From assembly GCA_964463505.1 (NCBI GenBank), contig CAYXDC010000002.1, positions 28,452-92,451 of the forward strand: DNA of 64,000 nt, written 5' to 3'. The translations under genes were made by a program, and so were the position numbers. Every line of letters starts with the position of its first letter. Within the stretch, counting starts at the first letter, position 1. Shown piece by piece: positions 3,986-31,077 of this stretch. The notes under the pieces are model-generated. The model did not search any database. It was not told the DNA's origin and saw nothing but the letters and a program-made list of their open reading frames with translations. Source of the stretch: an uncultured Anaerolineaceae bacterium (GTDB taxonomy: Bacteria > Chloroflexota > Anaerolineae > Anaerolineales > UBA4823).

Positions 3986-4067
3986 GTGTGGTTCCTTTCT
4001 CATTCAAACGTAGACGATCATTTATTGATAAGGTAGACCTCGTCGCTGAAGCATTCCCGGTAAATGT

Positions 4068-4898: not shown

Positions 4899-4922
4899 GT
4901 AAACTGCTCCCTGACATTTAAC

Positions 4923-4995
4923 TTGACAAGCACTCTGTGGGTATGATACCATAGCAAAGACGACAATGGTAAACATTGTGCGATAATGGCGAACA
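4923..4995 (+). promoter_or_regulatory. Putative promoter (TTGACA-N18-TGnTACCAT) and candidate IclR operator palindromes in the divergent intergenic region
   Basis: TTGACA 4923-4928; TACCAT 4947-4952 with TG at 4944-4945; inverted repeat ACAATG-N5-CATTGT 4963-4979; TGTGCG-N7-CGAACA 4977-4995. Confidence 0.45.
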
Positions 4996-5041
4996 CGGTC
5001 GTTGCTGATCATCCATTTTAGTTACCTCATCACCACAGGGT

Positions 5042-5833: not shown

Positions 5834-5857
5834 ACTCTTTGCCTGGCAATCAGGAGA

Positions 5858-7366: not shown

Positions 7367-7387
7367 TAAAAAACGGAAGGGAAACTC

Positions 7388-8524: not shown

Positions 8525-9304
8525 ATGAGCAGTCAAAGAGTCGCTATCGTGACCGGAAGCAGCCGTGGGATCGGCCGGGGAATTGCCCTGAGTCTGGCAG
8601 AGCGTGGCTGGGATATCATTATAAACTATCACAGCAATGCTGCTGCGGCTGAAGAAGTGCGCCTGGCGGTGCAGGGCTTGGGAACACATGCTTTGCTGGT
8701 GCAGGCTGATCTTGCTAACCTGGCAGACCTGAACCATATGGTGGATGCGACCCTGGAACGCTATGGACGGATTGACCTGCTGGTTAATAATGCCGGCGTG
8801 GGACCGCGCCAGCGTGTGGATTTACTCTCCACTACTGTCGAGAGCTACGACGAAGTTATGGCAACCAACCTGAGAGGCCCTTTCTTTCTTACCCAGCGCG
8901 TTGCCAATGAGATGATCGCTCAATTACAGGCCGGCAAGATCAGTACAGCCCACATTGTCAATATTGGCTCGATTAGCGCCTACACCAGCAGCCCATCGCG
9001 AGCTGAGTACTGCATCAGCAAGGCTGGCGTGGGTATGCTGACGATTGTATTCGCCGACCGCCTGGCAGAGTATGGGATTAACGTGTACGAAATCCGCCCG
9101 GGGATCATCGCCACCGACCTGACCAGCGTGGTCAAGGTGAAGTACGATCGCATGATCTTCGAGGAAGGCTTGACGCCAATCCGGCGTTGGGGCCAGCCGG
9201 AAGACGTGGCCAAAGCAGTGGTTGCAGTTGCCGAGGGCTTGCTGCCGTACTCCACCGGTGAAGTGATTAATGTGGATGGGGGTTTTCACCTCCATCGTTT
9301 GTAA
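8525..9304 (+). CDS. Short-chain dehydrogenase/reductase (PRK12745-like '3-ketoacyl-ACP reductase' subfamily)
   Basis: TGSSRGIG, VNNAG, S...YCISK catalytic motif, VYEIRPGIIATD, DGG terminus. ATG directly follows the GH88 stop codon. Confidence 0.9.
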   Translation: MSSQRVAIVTGSSRGIGRGIALSLAERGWDIIINYHSNAAAAEEVRLAVQGLGTHALLVQADLANLADLNHMVDATLERYGRIDLLVNNAGVGPRQRVDLLSTTVESYDEVMATNLRGPFFLTQRVANEMIAQLQAGKISTAHIVNIGSISAYTSSPSRAEYCISKAGVGMLTIVFADRLAEYGINVYEIRPGIIATDLTSVVKVKYDRMIFEEGLTPIRRWGQPEDVAKAVVAVAEGLLPYSTGEVINVDGGFHLHRL

Positions 9305-15940: not shown

Positions 15941-16987
15941 ATGTCAAAAACGCGCCTAATGGCGATCGTTACCGCTCCCGGGAAAGTGGAGATATTAGAA
16001 CGGCCTCTGCCAGAACCCGGCCCGACCGAAGTGCAGCTGCGCGTGCGTGCTGTGACCCTGTGTGGTGGGGACATGCATATCTTTGCCGGTAAGCACCCGT
16101 CTGTGTCGCTGCCAGTCCCCATTGGGCATGAGATTGCCGGGGACGTGGTTGCGTTAGGAGAGAAAGTGACCCGCTTGCAGATCGGGGACCGGGTGACGGT
16201 TGAGCCGGTAATCGCATGCGGAAAGTGCTATTTCTGCCAGCGTGGTCAATATCATTTTTGCACCTCCATCAGCTTTCAATATCGCCGCGGACAGGGTGGG
16301 GTGACCACAGATTTTATCGTGGATGAGCGTTGGGCGCACCGCTTACCTGCCGCGGCTACATATACCGAAGGAGCTTTGTTGGAGCCGTTGGCAGTAGCAG
16401 TGCATGCAGTCCAAAAAGCTGATCTCCGCCTGGGGCAGAGCGTGGCGATTTTTGGCGCTGGGGCAATTGGCTTGTTGGTGCTGCAACTGGCGCAGCAGGC
16501 CGGCGCCGGGCAGGTGCTGATCACGGATGTACGTCCAGCGCGTCTGGAGATGGCTCGCCAACTGGGTGCCAGCGCAGCATTGAACAGCCTGGATGGTGAT
16601 GTGCTGGCAGAGATCGCAGCTCTCACAGATGGCCTGGGTGTAGACCGAGCCTTTGAAGCGGTTGGTTTACAGGTTACCCTGGTCCAGGCATTGAAAGCGC
16701 TGCGCAAGGGCGGGCGGGCTGTACTGGTTGGGCTGTTTGAACAGGATGAGCTAACAATCCCAGCCAATATTTTCGTGCACCGTGAGATCGAGCTGTCTGG
16801 GTCACAAGGTTATTGCTGGGATTTTCAAACCGCCATCCAATTCCTGGCGCTGGGAAAGGTGGATTTGCAGCGCCTGATAACGCATGTATACCCCATGGAT
16901 CAAGTTCAGGCGGCGTTTGATACCCTGGCGGATCGTCAGTCTGGAGCAGTGAAGGTTGTCATCCAGATAGGTGACAATAGTTCTTGA
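15941..16987 (+). CDS. Zn-dependent medium-chain (sorbitol/L-threonine-like) dehydrogenase
   Basis: CGGDMH, GHE, structural Zn CGKCYFCQRGQYHFC, GAGAIG. ATG 15941 after GGAGGAG. Confidence 0.92.
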   Translation: MSKTRLMAIVTAPGKVEILERPLPEPGPTEVQLRVRAVTLCGGDMHIFAGKHPSVSLPVPIGHEIAGDVVALGEKVTRLQIGDRVTVEPVIACGKCYFCQRGQYHFCTSISFQYRRGQGGVTTDFIVDERWAHRLPAAATYTEGALLEPLAVAVHAVQKADLRLGQSVAIFGAGAIGLLVLQLAQQAGAGQVLITDVRPARLEMARQLGASAALNSLDGDVLAEIAALTDGLGVDRAFEAVGLQVTLVQALKALRKGGRAVLVGLFEQDELTIPANIFVHREIELSGSQGYCWDFQTAIQFLALGKVDLQRLITHVYPMDQVQAAFDTLADRQSGAVKVVIQIGDNSS

Positions 16988-17040
16988 CAGATGTCTCTGG
17001 TTTTTTATATAATTCGTTAGCGCTAACGGCAACGCTAACG
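16984..17040 (+). promoter_or_regulatory. Consensus sigma70 promoter (TTGACA-N18-TATAAT) followed by a LacI-type operator CGTTAGCGCTAACG
   Basis: TTGACA 16984-16989, TATAAT 17008-17013, perfect 14-bp palindrome 17015-17028, extra half-site CGCTAACG 17033-17040. Confidence 0.8.
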
Positions 17041-17137: not shown

Positions 17138-18160
17138 ATGAATGTGAAGGAAAGGTTCTTGAAAGCTCTGCATCTGGAGGCCGTTGATCGCCCACCTGTG
17201 GCTGCTGTGGCTACCGGGATTACCGTTCAGATGATGGAAAAGGTAGGGATTTATTGGCCTGAAGCGCACAGCGACCCCGACCTATTGGCAGGTCTGGCTG
17301 AATCGATCTGGGTGCATACCAATATCGAGTGCATGAAGCTACCCTTTGATATGGTGGTTGAGGTTGAGGCACTGGGTGCCCAAATCAATTACCGCACTCG
17401 AGATACTCTGCCCACTGAAGTTGGGCATTTATACAATCATCCCGATCAACTCACCATCCCCAAGAATTTCTTTGATCTAGGGCGTGTCCCTACTGTTCTC
17501 AAAGCGATTCATTCCCTGCGCAAACGCTACGATGAGGAAGCACCGATCGTCTCCTCGATTGTAGGTCCGTTCTCAATCGCCGGGAAACTGTTCGGATTTG
17601 AGAATTTCTTGATCTGGATCATAACTAACCCGGAATTGGTCCACCAGGCGATGGCTGCCTTGACCCCCCTGGCAATCGCCTATGCCAATGCGCAGATTGA
17701 GGCAGGGGCCGATGCTATCATTATTGGGGAGGCTTCTTGCACAGGCGACCTGATTTCTCCGTTTACCTACCGTGATTTAATCGCTCCCTATCATGGCCAG
17801 CTCTGTCCGGCGATCCAAGGCCCAACAATCATGCATATCTGTGGCAAGTCCACTCGCCATACACCTTTCCTGGCCGATATCGGCACCAACTGTTACAACT
17901 TCGACGAAGGGGTGGATATTCAGGTCGCTGTACATAATTTAAAAGGCAAGGTCGCCCTGGCTGGTTATGTGCCGACTGTAAAAGTACTGCTTAATGGAAC
18001 CCCTGAGGATGTATATCGGTCCACGATGGAATGCCTGGATAATGGAGTGGATATGGTGACCCCGGGTTGCGCCATGGCCCCCTATACACCACTTGAAAAT
18101 ATTGCTGCGATGACGCAGGCAGTTCGGGATTGGAAACCTAACCCAACCGCTGTAGGATAG
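17138..18160 (+). CDS. MtaA/CmuA-family methylcobamide:thiol methyltransferase-like protein (UroD superfamily)
   Basis: KERFLKAL...VDRPPV, YWPEAHSDP, EVEALG, GRVPTVLKAI, GPFSIAG, Zn motif MHICG...TPGCA. Confidence 0.85.
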   Translation: MNVKERFLKALHLEAVDRPPVAAVATGITVQMMEKVGIYWPEAHSDPDLLAGLAESIWVHTNIECMKLPFDMVVEVEALGAQINYRTRDTLPTEVGHLYNHPDQLTIPKNFFDLGRVPTVLKAIHSLRKRYDEEAPIVSSIVGPFSIAGKLFGFENFLIWIITNPELVHQAMAALTPLAIAYANAQIEAGADAIIIGEASCTGDLISPFTYRDLIAPYHGQLCPAIQGPTIMHICGKSTRHTPFLADIGTNCYNFDEGVDIQVAVHNLKGKVALAGYVPTVKVLLNGTPEDVYRSTMECLDNGVDMVTPGCAMAPYTPLENIAAMTQAVRDWKPNPTAVG

Positions 18161-18208
18161 GCGGGTTGGTTAATTCGAATAGATGAACGGACAAAAATAG
18201 AGGTATAT

Positions 18209-19345
18209 GTGAGCCGGATTGCGCGTGTGGAAGTTGGTCGCTATGATTATGTCTTTGCCGGGGCATTTAAATTCTTCAAACCCGGAAAAGATGGAGTGGT
18301 CCGCCGTCCAACCGTGTTTGTCCGCCTGACCGATGAGGCTGGCTTGCAGGGTTGGGGACAGGCTGTGCCAGTGCCCACCTGGACTTACGAGACGGTTGAG
18401 ACTGTGGAAAGCACCTTAACTAACTACCTGGCTGAGGCAGTGCTGGGCGCGGACCCAGATGACCTTTCCGAGGTCCACCGGCGCATGGACTATGCTATCC
18501 GTCCGGGGTTCTCAACCGGACAGCCGATCGCCAAAGCTGCCCTGGACCTGGCTTGCTACGATCTGGTTGGGAAGCGGGAAGGCGTTCCCGTCGCCAATCT
18601 CTTGGGTGGAGCCCGCCGCGATGCAATTCGCTTGAATTGGACTTTAAATGCTCTCACATTGGCGGAGGCTGAAATCCAATTGGAAAAAGCACGCATCGGC
18701 GGTTTTGGCCACTTCAACATCAAAGTTGGTCCACCACAAACACCGGAATATGACTTGGAGTTGGTGCGCCTTGTGCGTCGGGAATTCCCCGATACATTCC
18801 TGTGGGTGGATGCCAATACCGGCTATCGCCTGGAGACCGCTCTTGACATGCTGCCAAAATTTGCCGCAATGGGCGTTCAGGCAATTGAATCTCCCCTACC
18901 TCCTAACCAATTACGTGGCTATCAGGCACTAAAGAAAAATGGCGCGGTGCCCATCTATATGGATGAAGGTATTATTTCACCAGTAGAGACGGCCGAGTTC
19001 ATCGCTTTGGAGATGTTCGACGGAGTGACCTTGAAGCATGCGCGGTCGGGTGGCTTGTGGCAAGCTCAACAGATTATTCGCCTGGTTAAAGAGGCCGGGT
19101 TGCAATTGCTTGGCTCTGGCCTCACCGATCCGGATTTATCATTGGCAGCCGCGTTGCATTTGTATGCCTGGGCAGATATCGACCGTCCATGCGCTTTAAA
19201 TGGACCACAGTTTATTGGCGAGACCCTGGTAAAGGATGGCTACAGTATTCAAGGTGACTTGATCTTCCTTCCCACCGGGCCTGGTCTGGGGATTGAATTG
19301 GACGAGAAAGCCCATTCGGTCCTGCGCGTTGCAGCGGAAGCCTAA
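18209..19345 (+). CDS. Enolase-superfamily enzyme, muconate cycloisomerase (MLE) subgroup
   Basis: GWGQA, AALDLACYDLVGK, FNIKVG, VDAN, IESP, MDEG, LKHARSGG, PTGPGLG. Confidence 0.88.
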   Translation: MSRIARVEVGRYDYVFAGAFKFFKPGKDGVVRRPTVFVRLTDEAGLQGWGQAVPVPTWTYETVETVESTLTNYLAEAVLGADPDDLSEVHRRMDYAIRPGFSTGQPIAKAALDLACYDLVGKREGVPVANLLGGARRDAIRLNWTLNALTLAEAEIQLEKARIGGFGHFNIKVGPPQTPEYDLELVRLVRREFPDTFLWVDANTGYRLETALDMLPKFAAMGVQAIESPLPPNQLRGYQALKKNGAVPIYMDEGIISPVETAEFIALEMFDGVTLKHARSGGLWQAQQIIRLVKEAGLQLLGSGLTDPDLSLAAALHLYAWADIDRPCALNGPQFIGETLVKDGYSIQGDLIFLPTGPGLGIELDEKAHSVLRVAAEA

Positions 19346-19354
19346 AGGTTAACC

Positions 19355-20821
19355 ATGCAGAATCTGACCGTAGCGCTGAAGCACACATCCCGAACACTCC
19401 ATAACTTGCAGACGCGCATTCCTTTTCGCTACGGATTTGCTACTCTGACAGCTTTTCCCCATCTTGTTCTTGAAGCGACATTTGAAATCAATGGCACACT
19501 CCAGAAAGGCTGGTCTGCTGAGAGCCTGATCCCGAAATGGTTCACTAAGGACCCTGACACAGAGTTTTCGGACGATCTAGTGGATATGCTTGCGGTAATC
19601 CGCCAGGCGGGTGTTTTCGCTGTCCGGATTGGGACTGCACCGAGCCTGTTTACCTGGTGGTGGGATCTTTACCATATCCAAAAGCGATGGGGAGAGAGAC
19701 ACGGCTATCCGGCGTTGCTCTGGAACCTGGGCGTCAGCTTATTGGAGAGAGCTGCGATCGATGCCTATTGTAGGGCTGGTAGGATCACCTTTGCCGCTGG
19801 GTTGCGTGAAAATGCCTATGGCATCCAACTCGGTCAGGTACACCCCATTTTGGAGAATAGCCAGCCAGTCGATTGGCTGCCAGCCCTGCCGCTCGAGCAG
19901 ATCAGTGTACGCCATACTGTCGGCCTGGCGGATTGTCTCACAGAGAGTGAAATCCCCCAAGCAGAGCGTAACCAGGATGATCTACCGCGGTCTTTGGAAG
20001 CTGCGATAGCTGCTTATCAGTTGCGTTATTTTAAAATCAAACTCTCCGGTGATGGATCGACAGACTTACACCGTTTAGCACAAATTGCTGCACTCTTACA
20101 CGGCATTGGGTTGGCAGACTACCAGTTCACTCTGGATGGCAATGAGCAGTTCCATCAGTCGACTGATTTTCTGGATTTTTGGCAGTCTTTACTAGATGCC
20201 ACCACTCTGGCAGACTTTCTCACGCATCTACTGTATGTCGAACAGCCTCTCCATCGCTCAGTTGCTCTGGATGAGCGTACCCGCCAGGCGTTTCTAAATT
20301 GGGAGGCGCGGCCACCCATCATCATCGATGAATCAGATAGCGACCTCACAAGCCTGGTACGGGCGATTGAATGTGGTTATGTGGGGACCAGCCATAAGAA
20401 TTGCAAGGGGGTTTTCAAAGGCATCGCCAATGCTTGCTTATTGGAAGCTCTGCGCCGGCAGAATCCTGACCAGCTCTTTCTGTTGAGTGGTGAGGACCTA
20501 GTCAATGTCGGACCGCTGGCTTTGCAACAAGATTTGGCAGTAATGGCATCATTGGGTATTGTGCACGTAGAACGCAACGGTCAACATTATTTCAATGGCT
20601 TGAGTGGTTTTCCTGCTTCGGCTCAGGCGGCGGTCCTGGCTTGCCACCCCGACTTATATCGAGAGCACCCGGCTGGTTATCCCGTCTTAAGGATTGAAGA
20701 TGGGGCTATCTCCACTCAGAGTATTAATACTGCCCCATTTGGATTATGCGTAGAGCTTGACACTGCTGAATTTACACCGGAAGAGGAGTGGGAATTTACC
20801 TCACTCGGTCTCCCAATATAG
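19355..20821 (+). CDS. Divergent enolase-superfamily (mandelate racemase/MLE-like) protein
   Basis: TRIPFRYG N-terminus, YFKIKL, LDGNEQ, YVEQP, IIDES, SHKNCKG, HVERNG. Confidence 0.75.
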   Translation: MQNLTVALKHTSRTLHNLQTRIPFRYGFATLTAFPHLVLEATFEINGTLQKGWSAESLIPKWFTKDPDTEFSDDLVDMLAVIRQAGVFAVRIGTAPSLFTWWWDLYHIQKRWGERHGYPALLWNLGVSLLERAAIDAYCRAGRITFAAGLRENAYGIQLGQVHPILENSQPVDWLPALPLEQISVRHTVGLADCLTESEIPQAERNQDDLPRSLEAAIAAYQLRYFKIKLSGDGSTDLHRLAQIAALLHGIGLADYQFTLDGNEQFHQSTDFLDFWQSLLDATTLADFLTHLLYVEQPLHRSVALDERTRQAFLNWEARPPIIIDESDSDLTSLVRAIECGYVGTSHKNCKGVFKGIANACLLEALRRQNPDQLFLLSGEDLVNVGPLALQQDLAVMASLGIVHVERNGQHYFNGLSGFPASAQAAVLACHPDLYREHPAGYPVLRIEDGAISTQSINTAPFGLCVELDTAEFTPEEEWEFTSLGLPI

Positions 20822-20839
20822 AAGAAAAGGATTAAACCC

Positions 20840-21667
20840 ATGGAAAAACCTGTAAATGAAACTTCTCAATTGAAAAAGAGTGAATTTATGGAAAATCTCA
20901 AGAACCGTTTGATGCCTTTCATTGGTATCTTTGGATTCCTGCTGATCTGGGAACTGGCAGTAATTGTGTTCGATATAAAAAGTTATTTGCTCCCCAGGCC
21001 GACCATGATTGTGCAAGAAGTCATTGTTCGGTTTGATTCTTTGATGAGTCATGGCGCGACAACGGCGTATGAAACCTTGCTTGGTTATGCCCTGGCGATC
21101 GCAATCGCTGTTCCTCTGGCAATAGGGATTACCTCATCGGCGGCTTTTGACCGCTTTATTATGCCGATCCTGCTGTTTTTCCAGGTGGTTCCAAAAATTG
21201 CAATTGCGCCCTTGTTCCTGATCTGGTTCGGTTTTGGCACGATGCCAAAAGTGATGGTTGCTTTCTTGATCTCGTTCTTTCCTATTGTGATTGATACTGC
21301 TGTAGGATTGCGCTCAATCTCTTCGGAGATGATTGACCTGGCGCGTTCCATGGGCGCTACCAAATCACAAATATTCCTACGCTTCCGCTTACCCACCAGC
21401 CTACCCTATCTATTCAGTGGTTTGAAGGTTGCCGCTACACTGGCAGTGGTAGGTGCAGTGGTGGGTGAATTCGTCGGAGCAGACCGTGGTCTGGGGTATT
21501 TATTACTCGTATCTAATTCAAATCTGAATACCGCCTTGACTTTTGCCACCATCGTTGTCCTTACGGCTCAAGGATTGTTTCTATTCTATGTAATTGAGAT
21601 CCTGGAACGTTTCATGATCCCATGGCACGTTTCTCGCCGGACGACCCCTGAACATGCGACGATGTAA
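20840..21667 (+). CDS. ABC transporter permease, NitT/TauT/SsuC family
   Basis: FQVVPKIAIAPLFLIWFGFG, EAA-like 'IDLARSMGATKSQIFLRFRLPTSLPYLFSGLK', GEFVGADRGLG. Confidence 0.92.
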   Translation: MEKPVNETSQLKKSEFMENLKNRLMPFIGIFGFLLIWELAVIVFDIKSYLLPRPTMIVQEVIVRFDSLMSHGATTAYETLLGYALAIAIAVPLAIGITSSAAFDRFIMPILLFFQVVPKIAIAPLFLIWFGFGTMPKVMVAFLISFFPIVIDTAVGLRSISSEMIDLARSMGATKSQIFLRFRLPTSLPYLFSGLKVAATLAVVGAVVGEFVGADRGLGYLLLVSNSNLNTALTFATIVVLTAQGLFLFYVIEILERFMIPWHVSRRTTPEHATM

Positions 21668-21776
21668 GGCAAAATTTGGTGGAAGGAGGTGATTTTGCGA
21701 CAATCGAATTACATAGTTGTCTGTCTTAGGTCAAAACCATATACAAAATACTGATTACCTTGAGGAGACTCTGCAC

Positions 21777-22835
21777 ATGAAGAAAGTTAATGTCCTTCGT
21801 TTGTTCGCGGCGCTCATGATCGTGGCGCTGATCGCGGGCTGCGCTCCGCAGCCTGCTGCTACCCCAGTAGCAACTGAGGAACCAGCGGAAGAGTTGGTAA
21901 AAGTCGACTTTCGCCTGAATTGGACTCTTTATGGCGAACATGCCCCGTTCTTCCTGGGTGTTGATAAAGGCTTTTACTTAGAAGAGGGCTTGGATGTAAC
22001 AATCTTGGAAGGCAGTGGTTCAGCCACAGTTGTGAAGCTGATTGGCAATGGCACCAATGTGATTGGTTATGCTGACTCAGCAACCATGCTGCGCGGCATC
22101 AGCGCCGGCGTGCCGGTGAAGGCGGTGGCAGTCACCTTCCAGTCTAGTCCGATGGCCTTCATCTATCGCCAGGATGCTGCCCGACCGACCACCATCGAAG
22201 AAGTAAAAGGTACTAAGATCGCCATCACCGCAGGTGATGCCAGTCTGGCGATCCTGGAAGCCTGTCTGGGTCGCAATAACATGACTATGGAAGACGTTCA
22301 ATTAATCCAGGTCTCGAACCCGGCTTCTAAAGAAACCGCAGTGCTAGAAGGCCAGACGGATGCGTTCCTCGGATATTTTGTTGATCAACCGATGCGTATG
22401 GAGAAGGTTACCGGCGTAGATATGGGTTGGTCTAAACTGGTTGATCTTTGCGATGTAAATACCCTGAGCAGCGCCATCATCGCCAATAACTTCTATGCCG
22501 AACAGAACCCGGAAGTAATTGCCAAGTTCGTGCGCGCTTCTCAACGCGCCTGGCAATACACCTTGGATCACCCCGAAGAAGCGGCTGAAATCTTCTCCCA
22601 GCACGCTGAGGCTTTTGATGTTCCTCTGTCGTTGGCCGAAATCGAAGGCTCTTTGACCTTGATGCACACTGCCAACAGTGAAGGGAAGCCGATTGGTTGG
22701 TCTGCTCCGGAAGATTGGACTGCCACCCAGGACGTTCTGGCTCAATACGCTGGATTCAAGCCTGAAGAGGATATCAACGTTTTCTTCACCAATGAGTTCA
22801 TCTCCGAACCTCCCTATTTGCCTCCAGCGGAATAA
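21777..22835 (+). CDS. ABC substrate-binding lipoprotein, NMT1/THI5-like (NitT/TauT family)
   Basis: Lipobox LIAGC after a basic + hydrophobic signal; FRLNWTLYGEHAPFFLGVDKGFYLEEGLDV; EGSGS. ATG 21777 after GAGGAG. Confidence 0.9.
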   Translation: MKKVNVLRLFAALMIVALIAGCAPQPAATPVATEEPAEELVKVDFRLNWTLYGEHAPFFLGVDKGFYLEEGLDVTILEGSGSATVVKLIGNGTNVIGYADSATMLRGISAGVPVKAVAVTFQSSPMAFIYRQDAARPTTIEEVKGTKIAITAGDASLAILEACLGRNNMTMEDVQLIQVSNPASKETAVLEGQTDAFLGYFVDQPMRMEKVTGVDMGWSKLVDLCDVNTLSSAIIANNFYAEQNPEVIAKFVRASQRAWQYTLDHPEEAAEIFSQHAEAFDVPLSLAEIEGSLTLMHTANSEGKPIGWSAPEDWTATQDVLAQYAGFKPEEDINVFFTNEFISEPPYLPPAE

Positions 22836-22854
22836 GGATTTCATAACCTGTTAC

Positions 22855-22891
22855 GGTTCTCCCCATAGGCCGAAATCCTGTGGGGAGAACC
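22855..22891 (+). promoter_or_regulatory. 15-bp stem-loop between the SBP and ATPase genes (mRNA stability/attenuation element)
   Basis: GGTTCTCCCCATAGG (22855-22869) pairs with CCTGTGGGGAGAACC (22877-22891) with one G-U pair. No U-tract follows. Confidence 0.7.
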
Positions 22892-22909
22892 CTCCAAGAG
22901 AAGATCAAG

Positions 22910-23686
22910 ATGACTGAACCCTATATTCGCTTGCAAAATGTCGAGAAAGTCTACCAGACGAAAGACAACCCAACCCTAGCGGTAGAGAATGCTGACTTTG
23001 ACATTCAAAAATCTCAGTTCATAGCTATTGTGGGTCCCAGCGGCTGTGGCAAGACCACCATTCTTAAAATGTTGGCTGGGTTGGTTCCCTATACTTCCGG
23101 GTTGATTACGATCGACGGAAATAAAGTTAACCGGCCACAGACGGATCTCGGTATTATCTTCCAGGATTCAGTTCTGCTGGACTGGCGAGATGTGCTCTCG
23201 AATGTTATGTTGCAGATTGAAATCCGCGGGCTGGATCAAAACATTTATGCACCGCGGGCACATGAACTGCTGAAAGCGGTTGGGCTGGATGGATTTGAAA
23301 CCAAGAAACCCTATGAGCTTTCGGGTGGAATGAGACAACGCGTAGCAATCTGCCGAGCGCTGGTCCATGATCCGCCGCTTCTATTGATGGATGAGCCATT
23401 CGGTGCGTTGGATGCCCTAACCCGTGAGCAGATTTCGATGGATATTCAGCACCTGTGGATGGAAAAGCGCAAAACGGCCTTACTGATCACGCATAGTATC
23501 CCCGAGGCGGTCCTCCTGGCTGATCGGGTGATCGTCATGAGTCCGCACCCCGGACGTATTGTTGAAATCATTGATATTGATCTACCGCGCCCACGCCGCC
23601 TGGACCAATTACCAGAACGGTTTAATGACTACACCGGTCACATTCGGAAGATTTTCCAGGCTTCAGGTGTTTTAGCGCTGGATTAA
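22910..23686 (+). CDS. ABC transporter ATP-binding protein, NitT/TauT family
   Basis: GPSGCGKT, LSGGMRQR, LLMDEPFGALDALTRE, ITHSIPEAVLLADRV. Confidence 0.93.
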   Translation: MTEPYIRLQNVEKVYQTKDNPTLAVENADFDIQKSQFIAIVGPSGCGKTTILKMLAGLVPYTSGLITIDGNKVNRPQTDLGIIFQDSVLLDWRDVLSNVMLQIEIRGLDQNIYAPRAHELLKAVGLDGFETKKPYELSGGMRQRVAICRALVHDPPLLLMDEPFGALDALTREQISMDIQHLWMEKRKTALLITHSIPEAVLLADRVIVMSPHPGRIVEIIDIDLPRPRRLDQLPERFNDYTGHIRKIFQASGVLALD

Positions 23687-23705
23687 GTACATAATTGAGG
23701 GAAGT

Positions 23706-24050
23706 ATGGCGAACTATTTGGTCGAGCAGATGGAGGACATCGGAACCATCCGCTGTCCCTGTGGTTTTACGCGGCGGGCGTTTGTAAATACGGAAAATGA
23801 TATAGCCACCCTGCATCTGCTGGATGTCGATGAAGACGCCCGCGTGCATTTCCACGAAACCCTGACCGAGATATATCTGATACTGGAGGGCGAAGGCATG
23901 CTGGAGTTGGACGGTGAGCAGGTCCCCGTAAAGCCAATGACCGCAGTGATGATCAAGCCCGGTTGCCGCCATCGTGCAGTTGGCAAGCTGCGAGTTGCTT
24001 TGGTGGCAATTCCGGCATTTAACCCCGCAGATGAGTGGTTTGACGAGTAA
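23706..24050 (+). CDS. Cupin-domain protein with an N-terminal CPCG motif
   Basis: Cupin motifs HFHETLTEIYLILEGEG and IKPGCRH; RCPCGFTRRAF at the N-terminus. Confidence 0.85.
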   Translation: MANYLVEQMEDIGTIRCPCGFTRRAFVNTENDIATLHLLDVDEDARVHFHETLTEIYLILEGEGMLELDGEQVPVKPMTAVMIKPGCRHRAVGKLRVALVAIPAFNPADEWFDE

Positions 24051-25272
24051 GCAGGCTGCGCAAAGATTAGATGTGCCGGCAACACTGCCCAAACTGGCAG
24101 CTACGCGGCGTTGGTACCATGTAGCAGGAGCGTGGCTGGGCATTGGCACTTCGCCAGGGGCGTTGCTCCTGGGCGCTGGTCTGGCAGCTCGCTATGGCGG
24201 TCCAGTGCCGCTGATTTCGATTCTGCTGAGCGCGCTGTTCATGTTTATCTTGTTGTGGTTCCAGGGTTCATTGGGTCTGGCACGCCCTTTGGGAGAAGGA
24301 TGCAATCTCAACCAAATCACCCCGCGTTATTTTGGAGTTGGCACGCAGCGAATGGTAGGTGCAGTAATTGCTCTGGGGATGGTCGGGTGGCTAGGTTTTA
24401 ATATTGGTCTGGGTGGTGCAGCACTGGGCGCCTTGTTGCGCTTGCCGGATGCGGCTGGGGCATTACTCTTGGGCTTGCCGATTGTCGCATTTTCCTTACG
24501 CGGGTTGCATAGTTGGAATCGCCTGGCAAGCCTGACCACACTGGCAGTTCTGGCTTTGGTGGGTATCATTGTTTCGCTACTGGCTGCGCGGACCATGCCG
24601 GTAACGTTTACCCTGCCGACCCCAGTTGGGTTGGTGACGGATGTTGCGGTTTTTGTAGGCTATATATCGGTATTCACGGTCCGCGCCCCAGATTTCACGG
24701 TTGGTTTACCCTCTCGACGGGATTTATTAGCAGTTGAAGGCTTGTTGATTATCCCAATTTTGCTCATAGCACTGGCGGGAGTCGGCTTGCAGCAAGGGAC
24801 CGGCTCAGCCGACCTGGTGGGAATTCTTGCCGAACCAGGCGGCCTGGCAATTGGCAATCTTCTGGTAGCGATCTCTATCATTGCGCCTACTTTTACCGCT
24901 TTATATTCTGGAGCACCTGCTTTGCAGGCGGCATTCCCAATGCAAGAACGACTGGCAATGCTGATCGTTACCAGCATCGGATTGACTCTGGCAATCCTGC
25001 GTTTTGATCTCAAATTACTGCCTTGGGTGACGGTACTGGCTGCCATGCTGCCCCCCTTGGTTGTACCTCTGGCAGTTGAATCAACCCGCCGCCGGCGGGG
25101 TAATCCCGATCGTTTGATCCCTTTATGGGTCTGGGCGCCGGGTGCATTGTTCTCAATGTTGTTATCCTTGATGCATAATCCCCTCGCCCCTTTGGTGGGG
25201 TTTTTAGTTACTGCCCTGGCAACGGCTAGCTGGTATTTTTTCTCCAGAAGGCGGTTGGAACGCGCCACCTGA
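24031..25272 (+). CDS. Purine/cytosine permease-like (NCS1/APC fold) transporter
   Basis: About 12 hydrophobic segments; 'WLGIGTSPGALLLG', 'GMVGWLGFN', 'APDFT', 'ALYSGA' resemble CodB-type permeases. Start uncertain (ATG 24031 or TTG 24040). Confidence 0.65.
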   Translation: MSGLTSKQAAQRLDVPATLPKLAATRRWYHVAGAWLGIGTSPGALLLGAGLAARYGGPVPLISILLSALFMFILLWFQGSLGLARPLGEGCNLNQITPRYFGVGTQRMVGAVIALGMVGWLGFNIGLGGAALGALLRLPDAAGALLLGLPIVAFSLRGLHSWNRLASLTTLAVLALVGIIVSLLAARTMPVTFTLPTPVGLVTDVAVFVGYISVFTVRAPDFTVGLPSRRDLLAVEGLLIIPILLIALAGVGLQQGTGSADLVGILAEPGGLAIGNLLVAISIIAPTFTALYSGAPALQAAFPMQERLAMLIVTSIGLTLAILRFDLKLLPWVTVLAAMLPPLVVPLAVESTRRRRGNPDRLIPLWVWAPGALFSMLLSLMHNPLAPLVGFLVTALATASWYFFSRRRLERAT

Positions 25273-25293
25273 TCTGCTAGATTAGAAAAGGAT

Positions 25294-26337
25294 ATGGTAC
25301 TTCCCATGAAAATTGATCAATGGCAAACCTTGCAACGCTGCGCACGTATGGAAGACCCTGGTGCGATCCCAGTGGCGCTGATCGTCGACTCCCCCTGGAT
25401 ACCGGGCTATTTGGGCATTTCGACCCTTGATTACCTGGGCAACCCGGAAATTTGGTTGCAAGCAAACCTGGAAGTGGAACAGCGTTTTCCAGATGTGATT
25501 TTCATGCCCGGTTTTTGGGCTGAAATGGGGATGGCAGCGGAGCCAAGTGGTTTTGGCTGCCGGATGAGTTTCTATGATGACCGCACGCCCCTGGTCCATC
25601 CGTTGCTCGATTCATTAGAGGATGTAGATCAGTTGCACCAGCCTGATCCAACCAGCGATGGGCTAATGCCATTCCTGCTAAACAAGATGCGAAAATTTGA
25701 GCCGCGTATACAGGATGCCGGACATGTCGTGAAAATTGTGGCCGCCCGTGGTCCGCTCGCAGTGGCCTCGCACCTATTGGGGATGACCAACTTCTTGTTG
25801 GGTGTTAAATTGGATCCAGCCAATACCCACCGCCTGTTACGGATTGCCACCCAGACGGTACGTGACTGGTTAGAAGCCCAAGCGAATGCTCTTACTGCCG
25901 CTGAAGGCGTAATGCTCCTGGATGATGTAGTAGGCTTCCTAAGCGAGAAGGACTATCTGGAATTTGCCCATCCTTATTTGAAAGAAATCCTGGATGCGTT
26001 TCCAGGTGCAGTAAAATTTTTTCATAATGATATGGATACAACTGTATCGTTCTCCCATCTGGCAGACCTTGGCATTCATATATTTAATTTCACTCACCTG
26101 CGCAGCCTGGATCGAGTAAGGCAATTGGTCGGGCCGCGGGTCTGTTTGATGGGGAATGTCCCCCCCTTGGATGTGTTGGCGCGTGGCACCCCGCAAGATG
26201 TGTTGCAAGCTGGGCACACCTGCCTGAAACTACACCCGGATCGGCGTGGTTTGATTCTCTCAGCCGGAGGTGGGGTTTCACCAGGTGTCCCGGGTGAGAA
26301 TATCCTGGCCCTATTGGATGCAGTCAGCCAGAGATAA
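25294..26337 (+). CDS. Uroporphyrinogen decarboxylase/MtaA-superfamily protein lacking the Zn-Cys ligands
   Basis: MAAEPSGFGC, ARGPLAVAS, LLDDVVG, FAHPYLKEI, CLMGNVPP, GTPQDV. FFHND and SAGGG stand where HxC and GC are expected. Confidence 0.82.
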   Translation: MVLPMKIDQWQTLQRCARMEDPGAIPVALIVDSPWIPGYLGISTLDYLGNPEIWLQANLEVEQRFPDVIFMPGFWAEMGMAAEPSGFGCRMSFYDDRTPLVHPLLDSLEDVDQLHQPDPTSDGLMPFLLNKMRKFEPRIQDAGHVVKIVAARGPLAVASHLLGMTNFLLGVKLDPANTHRLLRIATQTVRDWLEAQANALTAAEGVMLLDDVVGFLSEKDYLEFAHPYLKEILDAFPGAVKFFHNDMDTTVSFSHLADLGIHIFNFTHLRSLDRVRQLVGPRVCLMGNVPPLDVLARGTPQDVLQAGHTCLKLHPDRRGLILSAGGGVSPGVPGENILALLDAVSQR

Positions 26338-26350
26338 GGAGATAGCTGGG

Positions 26351-27517
26351 ATGATTAAAGTTGCAATCATTGGCTGCGGTGCGATCGCGGACAGCCATAT
26401 ACGTGCCTACCAGAAATTTCCGGCTGAATGTCAGATCGTCGCCCTGGTAGATCTGTATCCAGAGAAAGCTGCCCAAAAGGCACAAGCCTACCAATTAGAA
26501 GCCGCGGTTTACGGCGATTACCAGAACTTGATTGTGGAGCAAGCAGTCGATCTAGTATCGATCTGTCTACCACCCTTTGCCCATGCACCAGCAACCATTG
26601 ATCTACTGAATGCAGGTGTGCATGTGCTGATAGAAAAACCGATGGCAACCTCAGTCGAAGAATGTGACGCGATGGTTCGGGCAGCAGACGCCAATCAGCG
26701 CCTGCTATCGGTTGTGGCTCAGAATCGATTCCAGACCCCGGTCCTGAAGTTGAAACAGGTGCTTGATTCTGGGCGAATAGGGAAGTTGTTACATGCTCAG
26801 GTTGACTCCTTCTGGTGGCGCGGGCCGAGTTACTATGATCTGTGGTGGCGTGGCACCTGGGAGAAAGAGGGCGGCGGTTGTACGATGAACCACGCCGTTC
26901 ACCATATCGATCTATTTCAGTGGATGATGGGCATGCCGAATGAACTTCAAGCGGTAATTGCCAATCTGGCCCATGAAAATTCGGAAGTGGAAGACTTCTC
27001 GCAGACCACATTCTATTATCCCGATGGGCGCATGGGTGTGTTGACCGCCTCACTGGTGCATCATGGAGAGGAACAGCAAATGCTATTCCAGGGAGAGCGG
27101 GCTGCGGTGGGGATGCCCTGGAAGGTGCGCGCTTCTCACCCGCGCCCGAATGGCTTCCCAGATGAAGATACTCAGTTAATCGCCGAGTTACAGGCATATT
27201 TTTCCCAATTGCCTGAGATAACACATATATTGCACGATGGCCAGATTGCGAATGTCCTGGCAGCGATCAGAGGCGAGCAACCACTCCTGTTGGATGGGCG
27301 CGAAGGCCGTAAGACAATTGAATTGGTTATGGCGATCTACCAATCAGCCAGTTTAGGACAGCGGGTTAAGCTGCCGCTTACCCCGTTAGACCCCTTCTAC
27401 ACTCGCCAGGGAGCGCTGGCAAACGCACCCCATTTTCATGCAAAAACCAGCAGTGTGGAAAATTTCACTGACAACAATATCACCTTCGGGCGGGATTTCA
27501 ACTCAAAGCAAGTCTGA
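26351..27517 (+). CDS. Gfo/Idh/MocA-family oxidoreductase
   Basis: VAIIGCGAIA, HVLIEKPMA, VVAQNRF, GGGCTMNHAVHHID. ATG 26351 after AAGGAG. Confidence 0.92.
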   Translation: MIKVAIIGCGAIADSHIRAYQKFPAECQIVALVDLYPEKAAQKAQAYQLEAAVYGDYQNLIVEQAVDLVSICLPPFAHAPATIDLLNAGVHVLIEKPMATSVEECDAMVRAADANQRLLSVVAQNRFQTPVLKLKQVLDSGRIGKLLHAQVDSFWWRGPSYYDLWWRGTWEKEGGGCTMNHAVHHIDLFQWMMGMPNELQAVIANLAHENSEVEDFSQTTFYYPDGRMGVLTASLVHHGEEQQMLFQGERAAVGMPWKVRASHPRPNGFPDEDTQLIAELQAYFSQLPEITHILHDGQIANVLAAIRGEQPLLLDGREGRKTIELVMAIYQSASLGQRVKLPLTPLDPFYTRQGALANAPHFHAKTSSVENFTDNNITFGRDFNSKQV

Positions 27518-27546
27518 ACTGTACGCAGTTTTAGGGAGGATTCATC

Positions 27547-28626
27547 TTGTCCACACAAAAAATTGATGGAATGCGCTACGCACCCAAAGGTAAACCTAAT
27601 CCGGTCTGCCAGAAGGGTGAGTTTCGGGTTGCGGCGATTGGCCTGGATCATGGGCATATATTTGGGATGTGCAATGGGTTGTTAGAAGCCGGAGCTGAAT
27701 TAGCCTGGGTCTATGATCCGGACGCCAAAAAAGTGGCTGATTTTTGTAAACGCTATCCAGATACTCAACCGGCTGCTTCCGCCCAAGCCATCCTGGATGA
27801 TCCTCAGATCCATTTGATCGCTTCCGCCTCAATCCCGGTCCAGCGCTGCTCGTTAGGTTTGCGCGCCATGGAGCACGGCAAAGATTTCTTTGCCGATAAG
27901 CCGCCCCTGATCACCCGGGAGCAATTAGCCCAGGCAAGTGCAAAAGTAGCTGAAACCGGACGTAAGTACGCTGCCTATTATTCAGAACGACTGCACGTGG
28001 AATGTGCGGTTATGGCGGGTGATCTGATCCAGTCCGGAGCAATCGGTCGAGTCTTGCAGGTTGTAAACCTGGCTCCCCATCGACTGAATGCTCCCGAGCG
28101 CCCTGACTGGTTTTTCAAGAAAGCCAGTTATGGTGGGATCCTGATTGACCTGGGTAGCCACCAAATTGAACAATTCCTCTATTATTCTGGCGCTAAAGAT
28201 GCCCACGTGCTGCATAGCAAGGTTGCCAATTACCATAATCCGACTCAGCCAGATTTTGAAGATTTTGGGGATGCAACCTTGATCGCCGATAATGGTGCAA
28301 CCCACTACCTGCGTGTGGACTGGTTCACACCGGAAGGCCTGGGGGTGTGGGGGGACGGTCGTGTCTTTATCATGGGAACTGATGGCACTATTGAGCTGCG
28401 TAAATATATCGATATTGGGCGAGATGGCGAGGGTGATCATCTCTATCTGGTCAACCAAGCAGGTCTGCAGCATATGGCGCTTCATGGACAGGTGGGTTTC
28501 CCGTTCTTCGGTCAGCTCATTCTGGACTGCCTTAATCGCACTGAAAAGGCCATGACACAGGCGCATACTTTCAAAGTGATGGAATTAGCCATTCAAGCTC
28601 AAGAAATGGCTGATAAGATCGCCTGA
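27547..28626 (+). CDS. Gfo/Idh/MocA-family oxidoreductase
   Basis: AAIGLDHGHI, FFADKPP, YSERL, YGGILIDLGSHQ, YLRVDWFTP. Confidence 0.9.
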   Translation: MSTQKIDGMRYAPKGKPNPVCQKGEFRVAAIGLDHGHIFGMCNGLLEAGAELAWVYDPDAKKVADFCKRYPDTQPAASAQAILDDPQIHLIASASIPVQRCSLGLRAMEHGKDFFADKPPLITREQLAQASAKVAETGRKYAAYYSERLHVECAVMAGDLIQSGAIGRVLQVVNLAPHRLNAPERPDWFFKKASYGGILIDLGSHQIEQFLYYSGAKDAHVLHSKVANYHNPTQPDFEDFGDATLIADNGATHYLRVDWFTPEGLGVWGDGRVFIMGTDGTIELRKYIDIGRDGEGDHLYLVNQAGLQHMALHGQVGFPFFGQLILDCLNRTEKAMTQAHTFKVMELAIQAQEMADKIA

Positions 28627-28647
28627 CATTGTGAAGGAGCACTCGCA

Positions 28648-30051
28648 GTGGTCAATCGTTTTGATGTTAGCACGGTAGGGGCGCAGTTGTATTTTCTCCC
28701 GGTGGAGACACGCGTCCCATTGAAATTCGGGCCTGAAACATTGACCTCGGTCACCTGCGCCAGGGTATGTTTGCGTGTCCAGGATCGTCAGGGGCGCATT
28801 GCTGAAGGGTGGGGTGAGACTCCCCTGAGTGTGCAATGGGTATGGCCCTGCCAGCTCAGCTATAGTGAGCGGCATTCGACGCTGCAAGAGTTTTCCATAA
28901 TGCTGGTGCAAGCCTGGGCAGAGTTTGGCAAATGGGGTCACCCGCTTGAGATTGGATACACTTTCCAAAAAAAGATTTTACCCGATCTATTGAATCAAGT
29001 AAACAACGCCCGAGCAGACAAGGAGCCAATGCCCTGGCTAGCTGCCCTGGTGTGCTGCTCGGCTTTTGATATTGCTTTGCATGACGCATATGGTATCGTG
29101 AATGGTTTGCCCGTCTATGAGACTTACCAGCCTCCCTACATGAATAAAGACCTGGCAGCCTATTTAAAACCAGGGGACGGGAGTGGAGTATCCTTTCAGG
29201 GTCGATTTCCGGTGGACTTTCTGCAATACCCACCCCCAGCGCTATTGCCCGTCTGGCATTTGGTAGGAGGATTGGATCCTCTCGGAGCAGATGAGTTGAC
29301 CGGTAGTGAACCCCAGGATGGCTATCCGGTCTTATTACGTGATTGGATTACCCGCGATGGTTTGAAATGTCTGAAGGTTAAGCTGCGTGGGAATGATCCT
29401 GTCTGGGATTACACACGCCTGATACATGTGGGACAGATTGCTCTTGAGACGGGTGTTGACTGGCTCACAGCAGATTTCAATTGTACGGTAACCGATCCGG
29501 AATATGTGAACGTGATCCTCGACTCTCTGCTGCAGGAACACCCCCGTCTGTATGGCATGCTTTTGTATGTCGAGCAGCCTTTCCCTTATGATCTGGAACG
29601 CAATCGGATCGATGTCCATAGTGTAGCGGCGCGCAAGCCGCTCTTTATGGATGAAAGCGCCCATGATTGGGAGCTGGTACGACTCGGTCAGAGCCTGGGT
29701 TGGAGTGGTGTGGCTCTGAAAACCTGCAAGACGCAAACTGGAGCGCTGCTCAGCCTGTGTTGGGCCAAAGCGCATGGTATGACCCTGATGGTGCAAGATT
29801 TGACGAATCCAATGTTGGCCCAAATTCCGCATGTCCAGCTTGCTGCGCATGCCGGGACGATTATGGGGATTGAATCAAATGCGATGCAGTTTTATCCGCA
29901 GGCTTCACAAGCGGAGGCGGCAGTACATCCGGGTCTGTATCAACGGAGAAAAGGCAAGCTAGATCGATCTACTCTATCTGGGCCTGGATTTGGCTATCGT
30001 CTTGCAGAAATCCGCCTAAAACTTCCTGATCCTGTAGTTACAGCGAGTTAG
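28648..30051 (+). CDS. Divergent enolase-superfamily (mandelate racemase/MLE-like) protein
   Basis: TRVPLKFG, EGWGETPL, CLKVKLRG, TADFNC, YVEQP, FMDESA, ALKTCKT, GPGFGY. Confidence 0.8.
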   Translation: MVNRFDVSTVGAQLYFLPVETRVPLKFGPETLTSVTCARVCLRVQDRQGRIAEGWGETPLSVQWVWPCQLSYSERHSTLQEFSIMLVQAWAEFGKWGHPLEIGYTFQKKILPDLLNQVNNARADKEPMPWLAALVCCSAFDIALHDAYGIVNGLPVYETYQPPYMNKDLAAYLKPGDGSGVSFQGRFPVDFLQYPPPALLPVWHLVGGLDPLGADELTGSEPQDGYPVLLRDWITRDGLKCLKVKLRGNDPVWDYTRLIHVGQIALETGVDWLTADFNCTVTDPEYVNVILDSLLQEHPRLYGMLLYVEQPFPYDLERNRIDVHSVAARKPLFMDESAHDWELVRLGQSLGWSGVALKTCKTQTGALLSLCWAKAHGMTLMVQDLTNPMLAQIPHVQLAAHAGTIMGIESNAMQFYPQASQAEAAVHPGLYQRRKGKLDRSTLSGPGFGYRLAEIRLKLPDPVVTAS

Positions 30052-30069
30052 GTTGAGGAGGAAAACGTT

Positions 30070-31077
30070 TTGATTAAACGCGTCACCTTGGCAGATGTTG
30101 CTCGTCAGGCAGGTGTTTCCATGCAAACCGTATCACGCGCGGTGCGTAATAAAGACGAGATCAGCACTGAAACACGGGAACGGATCATGGCGATAGTGAA
30201 CGAGCTGGGTTACCGGCCCAGTGGTATCGCTCGCAGCCTGGTCACACAGCGAACAACAACGGTTGGCTTAATGGTTCCCGATATTGCCAACCCGTTTTTC
30301 TCTGAGATTGCCCGGGGTGTTGAGGATACCGCCTATGCCCATGCTTATACATTATTTTTGTGTAACGCGGCTGAAGATATCGAGCGTGAAAAAGCTGCCT
30401 TAAACTCTCTTCTGGAAAAACAAGTTGATGGGGTGATCATCTGCAGCCCGCGCCTTCCAATGACCGATCTATTGGCCTACCTTGAGCAGTTCTACTATGC
30501 CGTAGTATTCAATCGCGATTTAAGCGAAGACATAGATAAGGTGCGGTTGATCTATGTGGATGATCAGGAAGGTACGCGACTGGCGTGGGATCATTTTGTC
30601 CTGCATGGTCATCAGAAGATCGGTATGTTGGCCGGCCCAGTCCAATCGTGGAGCAGCCAGAAGCGGGTGGCGAGCTTCCGTGCTGCATGCAAATCTGCAG
30701 GGCTGGATGGCTGTCTGGAGTTGATCCAGCATTGTATGCCTACCATTGCTGGGGGATTGGAAGGGACTGAACGATTGTTGATTGATCATCCGGAAATTAC
30801 CGCCATCCTCGCTTTTAATGACCTGGTAGCAATTGGTGCCTTACGTATCTGCCAAAAACTTGGCCGAAGGGTTCCTCAGGATATCGAAATAATTGGCTCA
30901 GATGATATCCCCCTGGCTTCTTTAATGACGCCCCCGCTTACTTCACTGCATGTCCCACATCGCACCTTGGGTGTCACTGGTATGCAATCCCTTATCCAAC
31001 TTCTCAATGGCGAAAAACCCGACCCATATCGGATTATTTTTCATCCAGAACTGACTTTGCGCTGCTCGGCGCCTTGA
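30070..31077 (+). CDS. LacI-family transcriptional regulator
   Basis: TLADVARQAGVSMQTVSR HTH, LGYRPSGIARSL hinge, NPFFSEIARG, NDLVAIG, IIGSDDI, PPLTSL. Confidence 0.95.
   Translation: MIKRVTLADVARQAGVSMQTVSRAVRNKDEISTETRERIMAIVNELGYRPSGIARSLVTQRTTTVGLMVPDIANPFFSEIARGVEDTAYAHAYTLFLCNAAEDIEREKAALNSLLEKQVDGVIICSPRLPMTDLLAYLEQFYYAVVFNRDLSEDIDKVRLIYVDDQEGTRLAWDHFVLHGHQKIGMLAGPVQSWSSQKRVASFRAACKSAGLDGCLELIQHCMPTIAGGLEGTERLLIDHPEITAILAFNDLVAIGALRICQKLGRRVPQDIEIIGSDDIPLASLMTPPLTSLHVPHRTLGVTGMQSLIQLLNGEKPDPYRIIFHPELTLRCSAP

Follow-up and report, generated by a model that had tools for sequence, protein, structure and literature searches.

The ThiXYZ importers of the NitT/TauT group, represented by ThiY of Bacillus halodurans (PDB entry 3ix1) and its C. 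difficile counterpart (4nmy), combine an NMT1/THI5/ThiY-type substrate-binding protein (SBP) with one permease gene and a TauB-like ATPase. TauABC and SsuABC of E. coli share the fold of this SBP, while CodB (cytosine), Mhp1 (hydantoin) and CytX (predicted to carry hydroxymethylpyrimidine, HMP) of the NCS1 family have a 12-helix LeuT fold. Relatives of both kinds of transporter lie side by side in an uncultured Anaerolineaceae bacterium, at positions 20840-25272 of a 64,000-nt window (the whole stretch of DNA that was analysed), where five genes on the same strand encode an ATP-binding cassette (ABC) permease, an SBP, an ATPase, a cupin and a membrane protein. Gene families were assigned by listing open reading frames (ORFs) and by scanning with Pfam and NCBIfam. 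That these transporters keep company with carbohydrate-type enzymes is a genuine and conserved feature still in need of an explanation.

The ABC system opens with a NitT/TauT-type permease (20840..21667, + strand; PF00528, 100 bits), the sole gene for its membrane domain, whose top NCBIfam matches are SaoP (113.7 bits), SsuC (94.8 bits) and TauC (91.7 bits). It closes with a TauB-like ATPase (22880..23686, +; PF00005, 114.7 bits) that scores 230 bits against the TauB model, under the cut-off of 357. Since every NCBIfam match of the permease and the ATPase falls below its equivalog cut-off, both are assigned at family level only, with TauC, SsuC and TauB as best or near-best matches. Between them lies the gene for a putative substrate-binding lipoprotein (21777..22835, +), which matches PF09084 with 153.6 bits (cut-off 20.5). 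Translation most likely starts at the ATG at 21777 rather than at the TTG at 21717 that opens the longest ORF (21717-22835). A GAGGAG ribosome-binding site lies 8 nt 5' of this ATG, and the N-terminus carries a hydrophobic stretch and the lipobox LIAGC, whose cysteine (Cys23) is retained in the orthologue consensus.

When a profile of the SBP (A2) was compared with PDB sequences, 4nmy was the best match (114.8 bits), followed by THI5/THI13 and ThiY (3ix1), with SsuA weak. The entry 4nmy is a thiamin-bound SBP from C. difficile (PMC10586155). The predicted structure (pLDDT 85.3) has a class II periplasmic-binding fold and resembles 4nmy (target-normalised TM-score 0.87) and 3ix1 (0.86); TauA, SsuA and PqqT, which binds pyrroloquinoline quinone, come lower in the list. 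Identity is 24% to 4nmy and 20% to 3ix1, and no window transporter matches the NCBIfam equivalog models of CytX and ThiY. The SBP also falls far under the cut-offs of the sulfonate-type models, with 70.3 bits against SsuA_fam (cut-off 163.5) and 32.6 bits against TauA (cut-off 304), and, unlike for TauABC and SsuABC, no desulfonating enzyme was found nearby. In contrast to ThiXYZ, the window SBP has very strongly conserved orthologues that travel with enolase-superfamily and Gfo/Idh/MocA enzymes. These orthologues are 70-83% identical within Chloroflexota, as against about 50-75% for the neighbouring enzymes, and 56% identical in a metagenome-assembled genome (MAG) of Acidobacteriota. R46, N48, W49, Y52, E54, H55, Y98, D100, T103, Q122, D154, K185, Y200, D203, R207 and W218 of the SBP are invariant and are assigned to putative loops of the pocket.

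Turning to the membrane protein (24040..25272, +; 410 aa), its start is most likely the ATG at 24040 rather than the GTG at 23974 of the longest ORF, and its homologues, 396-413 aa long, align from the position of this ATG. The protein has no family in Pfam (E up to 10) or NCBIfam (E up to 0.01), including PF02133, CodB and CytX, and a profile of 22 homologues (A1) found no NCS1 chain among PDB sequences. Its AlphaFold model (pLDDT 87.9, pTM 0.85) has 12 helices, and a Foldseek search with this model places CodB (7qoa) on top (E 8.5e-8, TM 0.72-0.75), then Mhp1, ahead of Nramp/APC. When A1 was run against 1.84 billion representative proteins (clusters at 50% identity), only 278 clusters were retrieved at E <= 0.001; nine of the ten distant full-length matches scanned (E 1e-11 to 1e-17) are true PF02133 proteins, with 71-114 bits. 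In language-model (Atlas) features, the clusters nearest to the permease are labelled 'putative HMP transporter CytX' (score 0.97). Because fold, transitive homology and language-model features agree, the protein is classified, from its sequence and model, as a divergent, CodB/CytX-like member of NCS1. The two families named in a first-pass annotation of the window, a THI5-like ABC system and an NCS1-like permease, are therefore borne out. For the permease, the classification by hidden Markov models which that annotation proposed fails by direct matching to Pfam and NCBIfam, and NCS1 is reached through the CodB/Mhp1 fold and the transitive PF02133 profile link. The NCS1-like gene is present in a single copy, and no canonical PF02133 gene was found in the rest of the genome, which is 88.6% complete.

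In CodB, W108 and F204 sandwich the cytosine, and this aromatic pair is conserved across NCS1 (PMC9379551). A low-confidence hhalign alignment of the 22 permease sequences places the invariant W117 opposite CodB W108 and position 208 (Tyr in 18 of 22, Phe in the other 4) opposite F204, so that both the Trp of transmembrane helix (TM) 3 and the aromatic residue of TM6 appear to be kept. The same weak alignment pairs the motifs 'GW.G', 'PDF' with 'ADF', and 'ALYSG'. It also replaces Gln105 of CodB by an invariant Met, and it offers no CodB counterpart for Arg215, an invariant residue of the TM6 break. The hydroxyl pair of the Na2 site, T278/T279 of CodB (TM8), falls into a gap of this probability-19% alignment, with T284 and T286 as candidates in the permease. 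Unlike CodB, Mhp1 and CytX, to which it is 15-17% identical, the permease is matched by none of the PF02133, CodB and CytX models, and unlike the solved NCS1 transporters it has sugar-acid-type enzymes, not deaminases, as genomic partners.

Conservation of the neighbourhood was surveyed by tblastn of the window proteins against 26 loci (25 distinct) that were reached via homologues of the permease; the ORF listing of one high-GC locus (L025) was too noisy for use. The homologues occur chiefly in MAGs of Anaerolineales, Caldilineales and other Chloroflexota, with a few in Actinomycetota. The order ABC permease-SBP-ATPase-cupin-NCS1-like permease recurs in 20 of the distinct loci, and 23 of them have an NMT1-type ABC system no more than 10 kb away. 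The pairing with carbohydrate-type enzymes noticed in the first-pass annotation is a conserved one. The usual gene order consists of an MtaA-like protein of the uroporphyrinogen decarboxylase (URO-D) family, an enzyme of the muconate-lactonizing (MLE) type, an enolase-like protein of about 490 aa, the ABC system, the cupin, the NCS1-like permease, a second URO-D gene present in some loci only, two Gfo/Idh/MocA oxidoreductases and an MR_MLE_C protein of about 470 aa. The tightest companions of the ABC system are the enolase-superfamily enzymes and the Gfo/Idh/MocA dehydrogenases.

In one MAG of Caldilineales and another of Chloroflexia, this set of 12-13 genes makes up a compact operon between housekeeping genes, joined in both by a TIM-barrel gene and a GntR/FCD regulator; the Chloroflexia gene calls fuse the TIM-barrel gene to the MR_MLE_C gene. 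The gene set is thus a self-contained unit without a glycosidase, and many relatives have no gene of glycoside hydrolase family 88 (GH88) in their compact core operon. Variant loci (L003, L018 and L021) combine a CoA-transferase, a crotonase, the MtaA-like protein, the ABC system, the cupin, the NCS1-like permease, a Gfo enzyme, GH88, a short-chain dehydrogenase/reductase (SDR) and a reductase resembling old yellow enzyme (OYE). SBP orthologues at about 60% identity keep the URO-D, MLE, enolase-like (about 485 aa) and Gfo genes, while the adjacent NCS1-like gene is not always kept.

The company of the NCS1-like gene varies among the loci. In Actinomycetota, the gene directly before it encodes a xylose-isomerase-like TIM barrel and not a cupin. 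A Nitriliruptoraceae locus (L023) reads Gfo-DUF993-TIM barrel-NCS1-like permease-KDPG (2-keto-3-deoxy-6-phosphogluconate) aldolase-PfkB, and another locus (L001) has UxaC inside the operon. In L002, an NMT1 ABC system, a Gfo enzyme, secreted proteins with carbohydrate-binding modules CBM6/35, DUF993, a TIM barrel and the NCS1-like gene are linked on a 2.8-Mb contig. The secreted pair (3016-7904) consists of two large CBM6/CBM35 proteins fused to GSDH-type and ThuA-type domains, and it sits between the NMT1 ABC system and the DUF993-TIM barrel-NCS1-like block. Gfo-DUF993-TIM-barrel clusters of this kind (L002, L023) hold the NCS1-like gene inside, as does the Chloroflexota operon; the latter differs in lacking DUF993 and in adding the MtaA-like protein, the MLE pair and the cupin. 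A literature search on DUF993 returned nothing.

The regulatory context of the window also sets the block apart from known vitamin importers. A promoter-like site, TTGACA-18-TATAAT, lies at 16984..17013 (+) ahead of the MtaA-like gene; it was recognised solely by its match to the consensus (12/12 positions), and a palindrome lies beside it. Between this site and 31077, no terminator was convincing, and the gene of a LacI-family regulator (30070..31077, +), the last of the operon, is taken as its end. In relatives, LacI or GntR/FCD regulators stand at the head of the operon; FCD- and LacI-type regulators accompanying it are counted as a signal of carboxylates or sugar acids. An Rfam scan of the whole window at gathering thresholds gave 0 matches, to a thiamin pyrophosphate (TPP) or any other riboswitch, so that, unlike ThiXYZ, the window system lies without a TPP riboswitch in a putatively repressor-controlled catabolic operon. 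The strongest other NMT1 match of the genome belongs to an ABC system (permease, SBP, ATPase) on contig C91 (L029; 6997-9532, minus strand), directly behind a flavin mononucleotide (FMN) riboswitch (RF00050, 9720-9882, 98.7 bits). This is a predicted RibXY-type arrangement, that of a RibXY-like riboflavin importer. Since the window has no Rfam match and the C91 system follows an FMN riboswitch, the window system is read as the catabolic one, with the vitamin-type system elsewhere in the genome.

Together with the five transporter-block genes, the remaining operon genes define the pathway that the transporters would feed. Upstream on the + strand are the MtaA-like URO-D gene (17138-18160), the gene of the MLE-type enolase-superfamily enzyme (18209-19345), assigned by Pfam and NCBIfam scans and by PDB profile, and that of a 488-aa enolase-like protein without a Pfam match (19355-20821). 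The cupin (23706..24050, +; 114 aa; PF07883, 37.4 bits), omitted from the first-pass annotation, lies between the ATPase and the NCS1-like permease, whose start it overlaps by 11 nt; its best PDB match is an uncharacterised protein, 4h7l (79.7 bits). The conserved downstream partners (25294..30051, +) are a second URO-D protein, two Gfo/Idh/MocA oxidoreductases and a 467-aa MR_MLE_C enolase-like protein (28648-30051, +), which is also conserved in related operons. The operon thus encodes three enolase-superfamily proteins; the 488-aa and 467-aa members, both conserved across related operons, gave no informative match to PDB sequences. Throughout the wider cluster (5042-31077), Pfam and NCBIfam scans detected no CUT1, CUT2, TRAP, MFS or other transporter beyond the two systems, in agreement with the first-pass annotation.

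The favoured explanation, which has about an even chance of being right, is that both systems take up the compound on which the operon itself acts, a ring-bearing carboxylate derived from carbohydrate that may be methylated. The operon (about 17138-31077) would probably be transcribed from the promoter at 16984 under the control of the terminal LacI-type repressor. Outside the cell, the lipid-anchored ThiY/THI5-like SBP would capture the solute, and a homodimer of the single TauC-like permease with a dimer of the TauB-like ATPase would move it inward at the expense of ATP. The NCS1-like protein may act as a cation-coupled symporter whose aromatic pair is kept as in the ring sandwich of CodB and Mhp1. 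Most likely, both systems carry the growth substrate of the operon or two closely related forms of it. Candidates for this presumably small ring-bearing acid are uronates, aldarates or their lactones, and acids derived from cyclitols, and it might carry methyl groups. In the cytoplasm, the acid would meet the three enolase-superfamily enzymes, the two Gfo/Idh/MocA dehydrogenases, the cupin or a TIM-barrel isomerase and the URO-D-type proteins, and the products may then pass to 2-keto-3-deoxy-acid kinase and aldolase steps.

Several neighbouring genes bear on the chemistry of this substrate. Enolase-superfamily enzymes abstract a proton next to a carboxylate, and since three of them flank the transporters, the pathway probably handles carboxylic acids. 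The Gfo enzymes weakly match inositol, UDP-sugar and levoglucosan dehydrogenases. A zinc-dependent alcohol dehydrogenase (Zn-ADH) has a sub-threshold match to the scyllo-inosose 3-dehydrogenase IolM, and the best match of a protein of the fumarylacetoacetase (FAH) family, below cut-off, is diketo-deoxy-rhamnonate hydrolase. The operon adjoining that of the transporters encodes Eda and a kinase nearest to the models of 2-keto-3-deoxygluconate and 2-keto-3-deoxygalactonate (KDG/KDGal) kinases, below their cut-offs. Collectively, the Gfo enzymes, Zn-ADH, FAH protein and kinase/Eda pair, with UxaC in L001 and the KDPG aldolase and kinase in L023, point to a six-carbon polyol-acid skeleton. No gene for processing a nucleobase, nucleoside, amine or sulfonate was found in the cluster.

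A number of observations weigh against a substrate of this kind. The nearest solved relatives of the SBP bind planar N-heterocycles, with thiamin in 4nmy, N-formyl-4-amino-5-aminomethyl-2-methylpyrimidine (FAMP) in 3ix1 and pyridoxal phosphate (PLP) in THI5, and the NCS1 clusters nearest to the permease are predicted HMP transporters; thus the two transporters independently point to a heterocycle. To our knowledge, no NCS1 member carries an anionic sugar acid, and no close relative of either transporter has a known ligand. The hhalign comparison of the permease family with E. coli CodB is weak (probability 19%) and serves for mapping motifs, not as proof. Plain uronate or aldarate pathways would leave unexplained why an MtaA-like methyltransferase homologue heads the operon, and the closeness of the MLE-type enzyme to (chloro)muconate cycloisomerases in the PDB (153 bits) could mean an aromatic-derived diacid. 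In addition, the sampled loci are phylogenetically clustered, so that the counts given above overstate their independence.

The first of the rival explanations takes the affinities of the transporters at face value. An N-heterocyclic or N-, S- or O-methylated carboxylate, for instance an acid of the proline, pyridine or pyrimidine type, a methylthio acid or a betaine, is an unlikely substrate, though one to be taken seriously. Both transporters would recognise its ring, the MtaA-like protein would demethylate it with a corrinoid protein encoded elsewhere, and the MLE-subgroup enzyme would epimerise or dehydrate it. Besides the heterocycles carried by the nearest relatives of both transporters and the conserved NCS1 aromatic pair, this proposal gains from the MtaA-like protein, which leads the operon in most related loci, scores 209.5 bits against Methanosarcina mazei MtaA (4ay7) and lies above the PRK06252 cut-off. 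The genome has seven URO-D family matches in all. No corrinoid protein was found near the MtaA-like gene, and elsewhere in the genome two small ORFs matching PF02607 (contigs C5 and C58) are of the size of the corrinoid protein MtaC. A 153-aa protein with a B12-binding domain is encoded at 43954-44415, about 19 kb downstream and outside the operon. Hydroxyproline-betaine epimerases and hydroxyproline dehydratases both belong to the MLE subgroup, and the NCBIfam model HProlDhtase scores 103 bits. On the other hand, the cluster is without a deaminase, amidohydrolase, amine oxidase or MttB-type methyltransferase, and the two Gfo/Idh/MocA enzymes, the TIM-barrel isomerase and the neighbouring KDPG aldolase and kinase suit a polyol acid better.

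Alternatively, the two systems may have different cargoes, which is doubtful. The ABC system would import a conjugate, such as an unsaturated or methylated uronide, to be cut by a cytoplasmic GH88 enzyme, while the NCS1-like protein would take up the monomer or expel the aglycone. GH88 acts on 4,5-unsaturated uronides. In the window, a gene pair for GH88 and an SDR lies at 7388-9304, and since the GH88-like protein is a full-length homologue of the Bacillus unsaturated glucuronyl hydrolase (UGL; 153 bits) and has no signal peptide, import of an unsaturated uronide by this organism is conceivable. About eight related loci have the pair no more than 10 kb from the transporter block, often with an OYE-like reductase. 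Separate cargoes would also fit the SBP orthologues that occur without an adjacent NCS1-like gene and the constant coupling of the NCS1-like gene to an isomerase-type gene, either cupin or TIM barrel. In opposition, the compact core operons manage without a glycosidase, the NMT1-type pockets known to date hold small ligands, and there is no indication of export.

A more novel reading specifies the substrate as a methylated sugar acid, for instance 4-O-methyl-glucuronate or an S-methyl acid, that would enter a hitherto undescribed pathway through sugar-acid-specific branches of the ThiY/NMT1 and NCS1 families. This reading is decidedly doubtful, and a literature search on the catabolism of 4-O-methyl-glucuronate found nothing relevant. 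If true, it would give both families their first anionic carbohydrate substrates and would place an MtaA-type zinc methyltransferase as a demethylase outside methanogenesis and acetogenesis.

A muconate-type diacid or lactone of aromatic origin, which might stem from methoxylated lignin monomers, is an improbable substrate. It would account for the chloromuconate and muconate cycloisomerases as the best PDB matches of the MLE-type enzyme, for the adjoining family-I CoA-transferase, crotonase, FAH-family hydrolase and OYE-like reductase, and for the MtaA-like protein, which could be a component of an O-demethylase. NitT/TauT-type systems are said to carry phthalate; a review on phthalate gives no ABC family for PatDABC. 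A ring-cleaving dioxygenase, a benzoyl-CoA-type reductase and a thiolase are nevertheless not present, and the context of Gfo, TIM-barrel, DUF993, KDPG-aldolase and UxaC genes is carbohydrate-like.

Of the substrate suggested in the first-pass annotation, an N-heterocycle- or sulfur-bearing uronide deduced from the transporters and GH88, only the notion of an imported uronide, in unsaturated form, holds some appeal for this genome. A nucleoside-type uronide (its speculative example was a cytosylglucuronic-acid or blasticidin-type nucleoside) or a sulfonated uronide is very improbable, as it has in its favour the family names and the presence of GH88 only. In the cluster, no nucleoside hydrolase or phosphorylase, deaminase, amidohydrolase, sulfatase or desulfonating enzyme was found, nor any other gene for processing nucleosides, nucleobases or sulfonates, and GH88 stands outside the core operon and belongs to a family for 4,5-unsaturated uronides. 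The nucleoside uronide was rejected as unsupported since base- and nucleoside-handling genes were not found, and sulfonate uptake was rejected on account of the low TauA and SsuA scores and the missing desulfonation genes.

Finally, salvage of a vitamin or vitamin precursor (HMP, thiamin, riboflavin or B6) by transporters placed among unrelated enzymes by chance is scarcely credible and was rejected, for although the closest solved or predicted relatives are thiamin- or HMP-related, the same enzymes accompany the transporters across many genomes of at least two phyla in a conserved catabolic operon context, no riboswitch was found in the window, the NMT1 system that does follow one lies elsewhere in the genome, and the CytX and ThiY equivalogs are unmatched.

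When metagenomes are annotated, substrates are widely guessed from the family name of a transporter. Here, carriers of the vitamin, nucleobase and sulfonate types are fixed parts of a catabolic operon for an apparent organic acid, and the mismatch between transporters and enzymes reflects narrow family names more than an exotic substrate, with a heterocyclic or methylated carboxylate as a less likely alternative. The NCS1-like proteins form a putative clade that is not covered by current family models; it is invisible to Pfam and NCBIfam, while its distant profile matches are ordinary NCS1 proteins. The orphan enzymes of the operon comprise the 488-aa and 467-aa enolase-like proteins, a non-methanogen MtaA homologue, a URO-D paralogue and a small cupin. 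The SBP is soluble, strongly conserved and easily expressed. The identity of its ligand would name the substrate of this 12-13-gene operon and would be of use for understanding the DUF993 operons related to it in other phyla.

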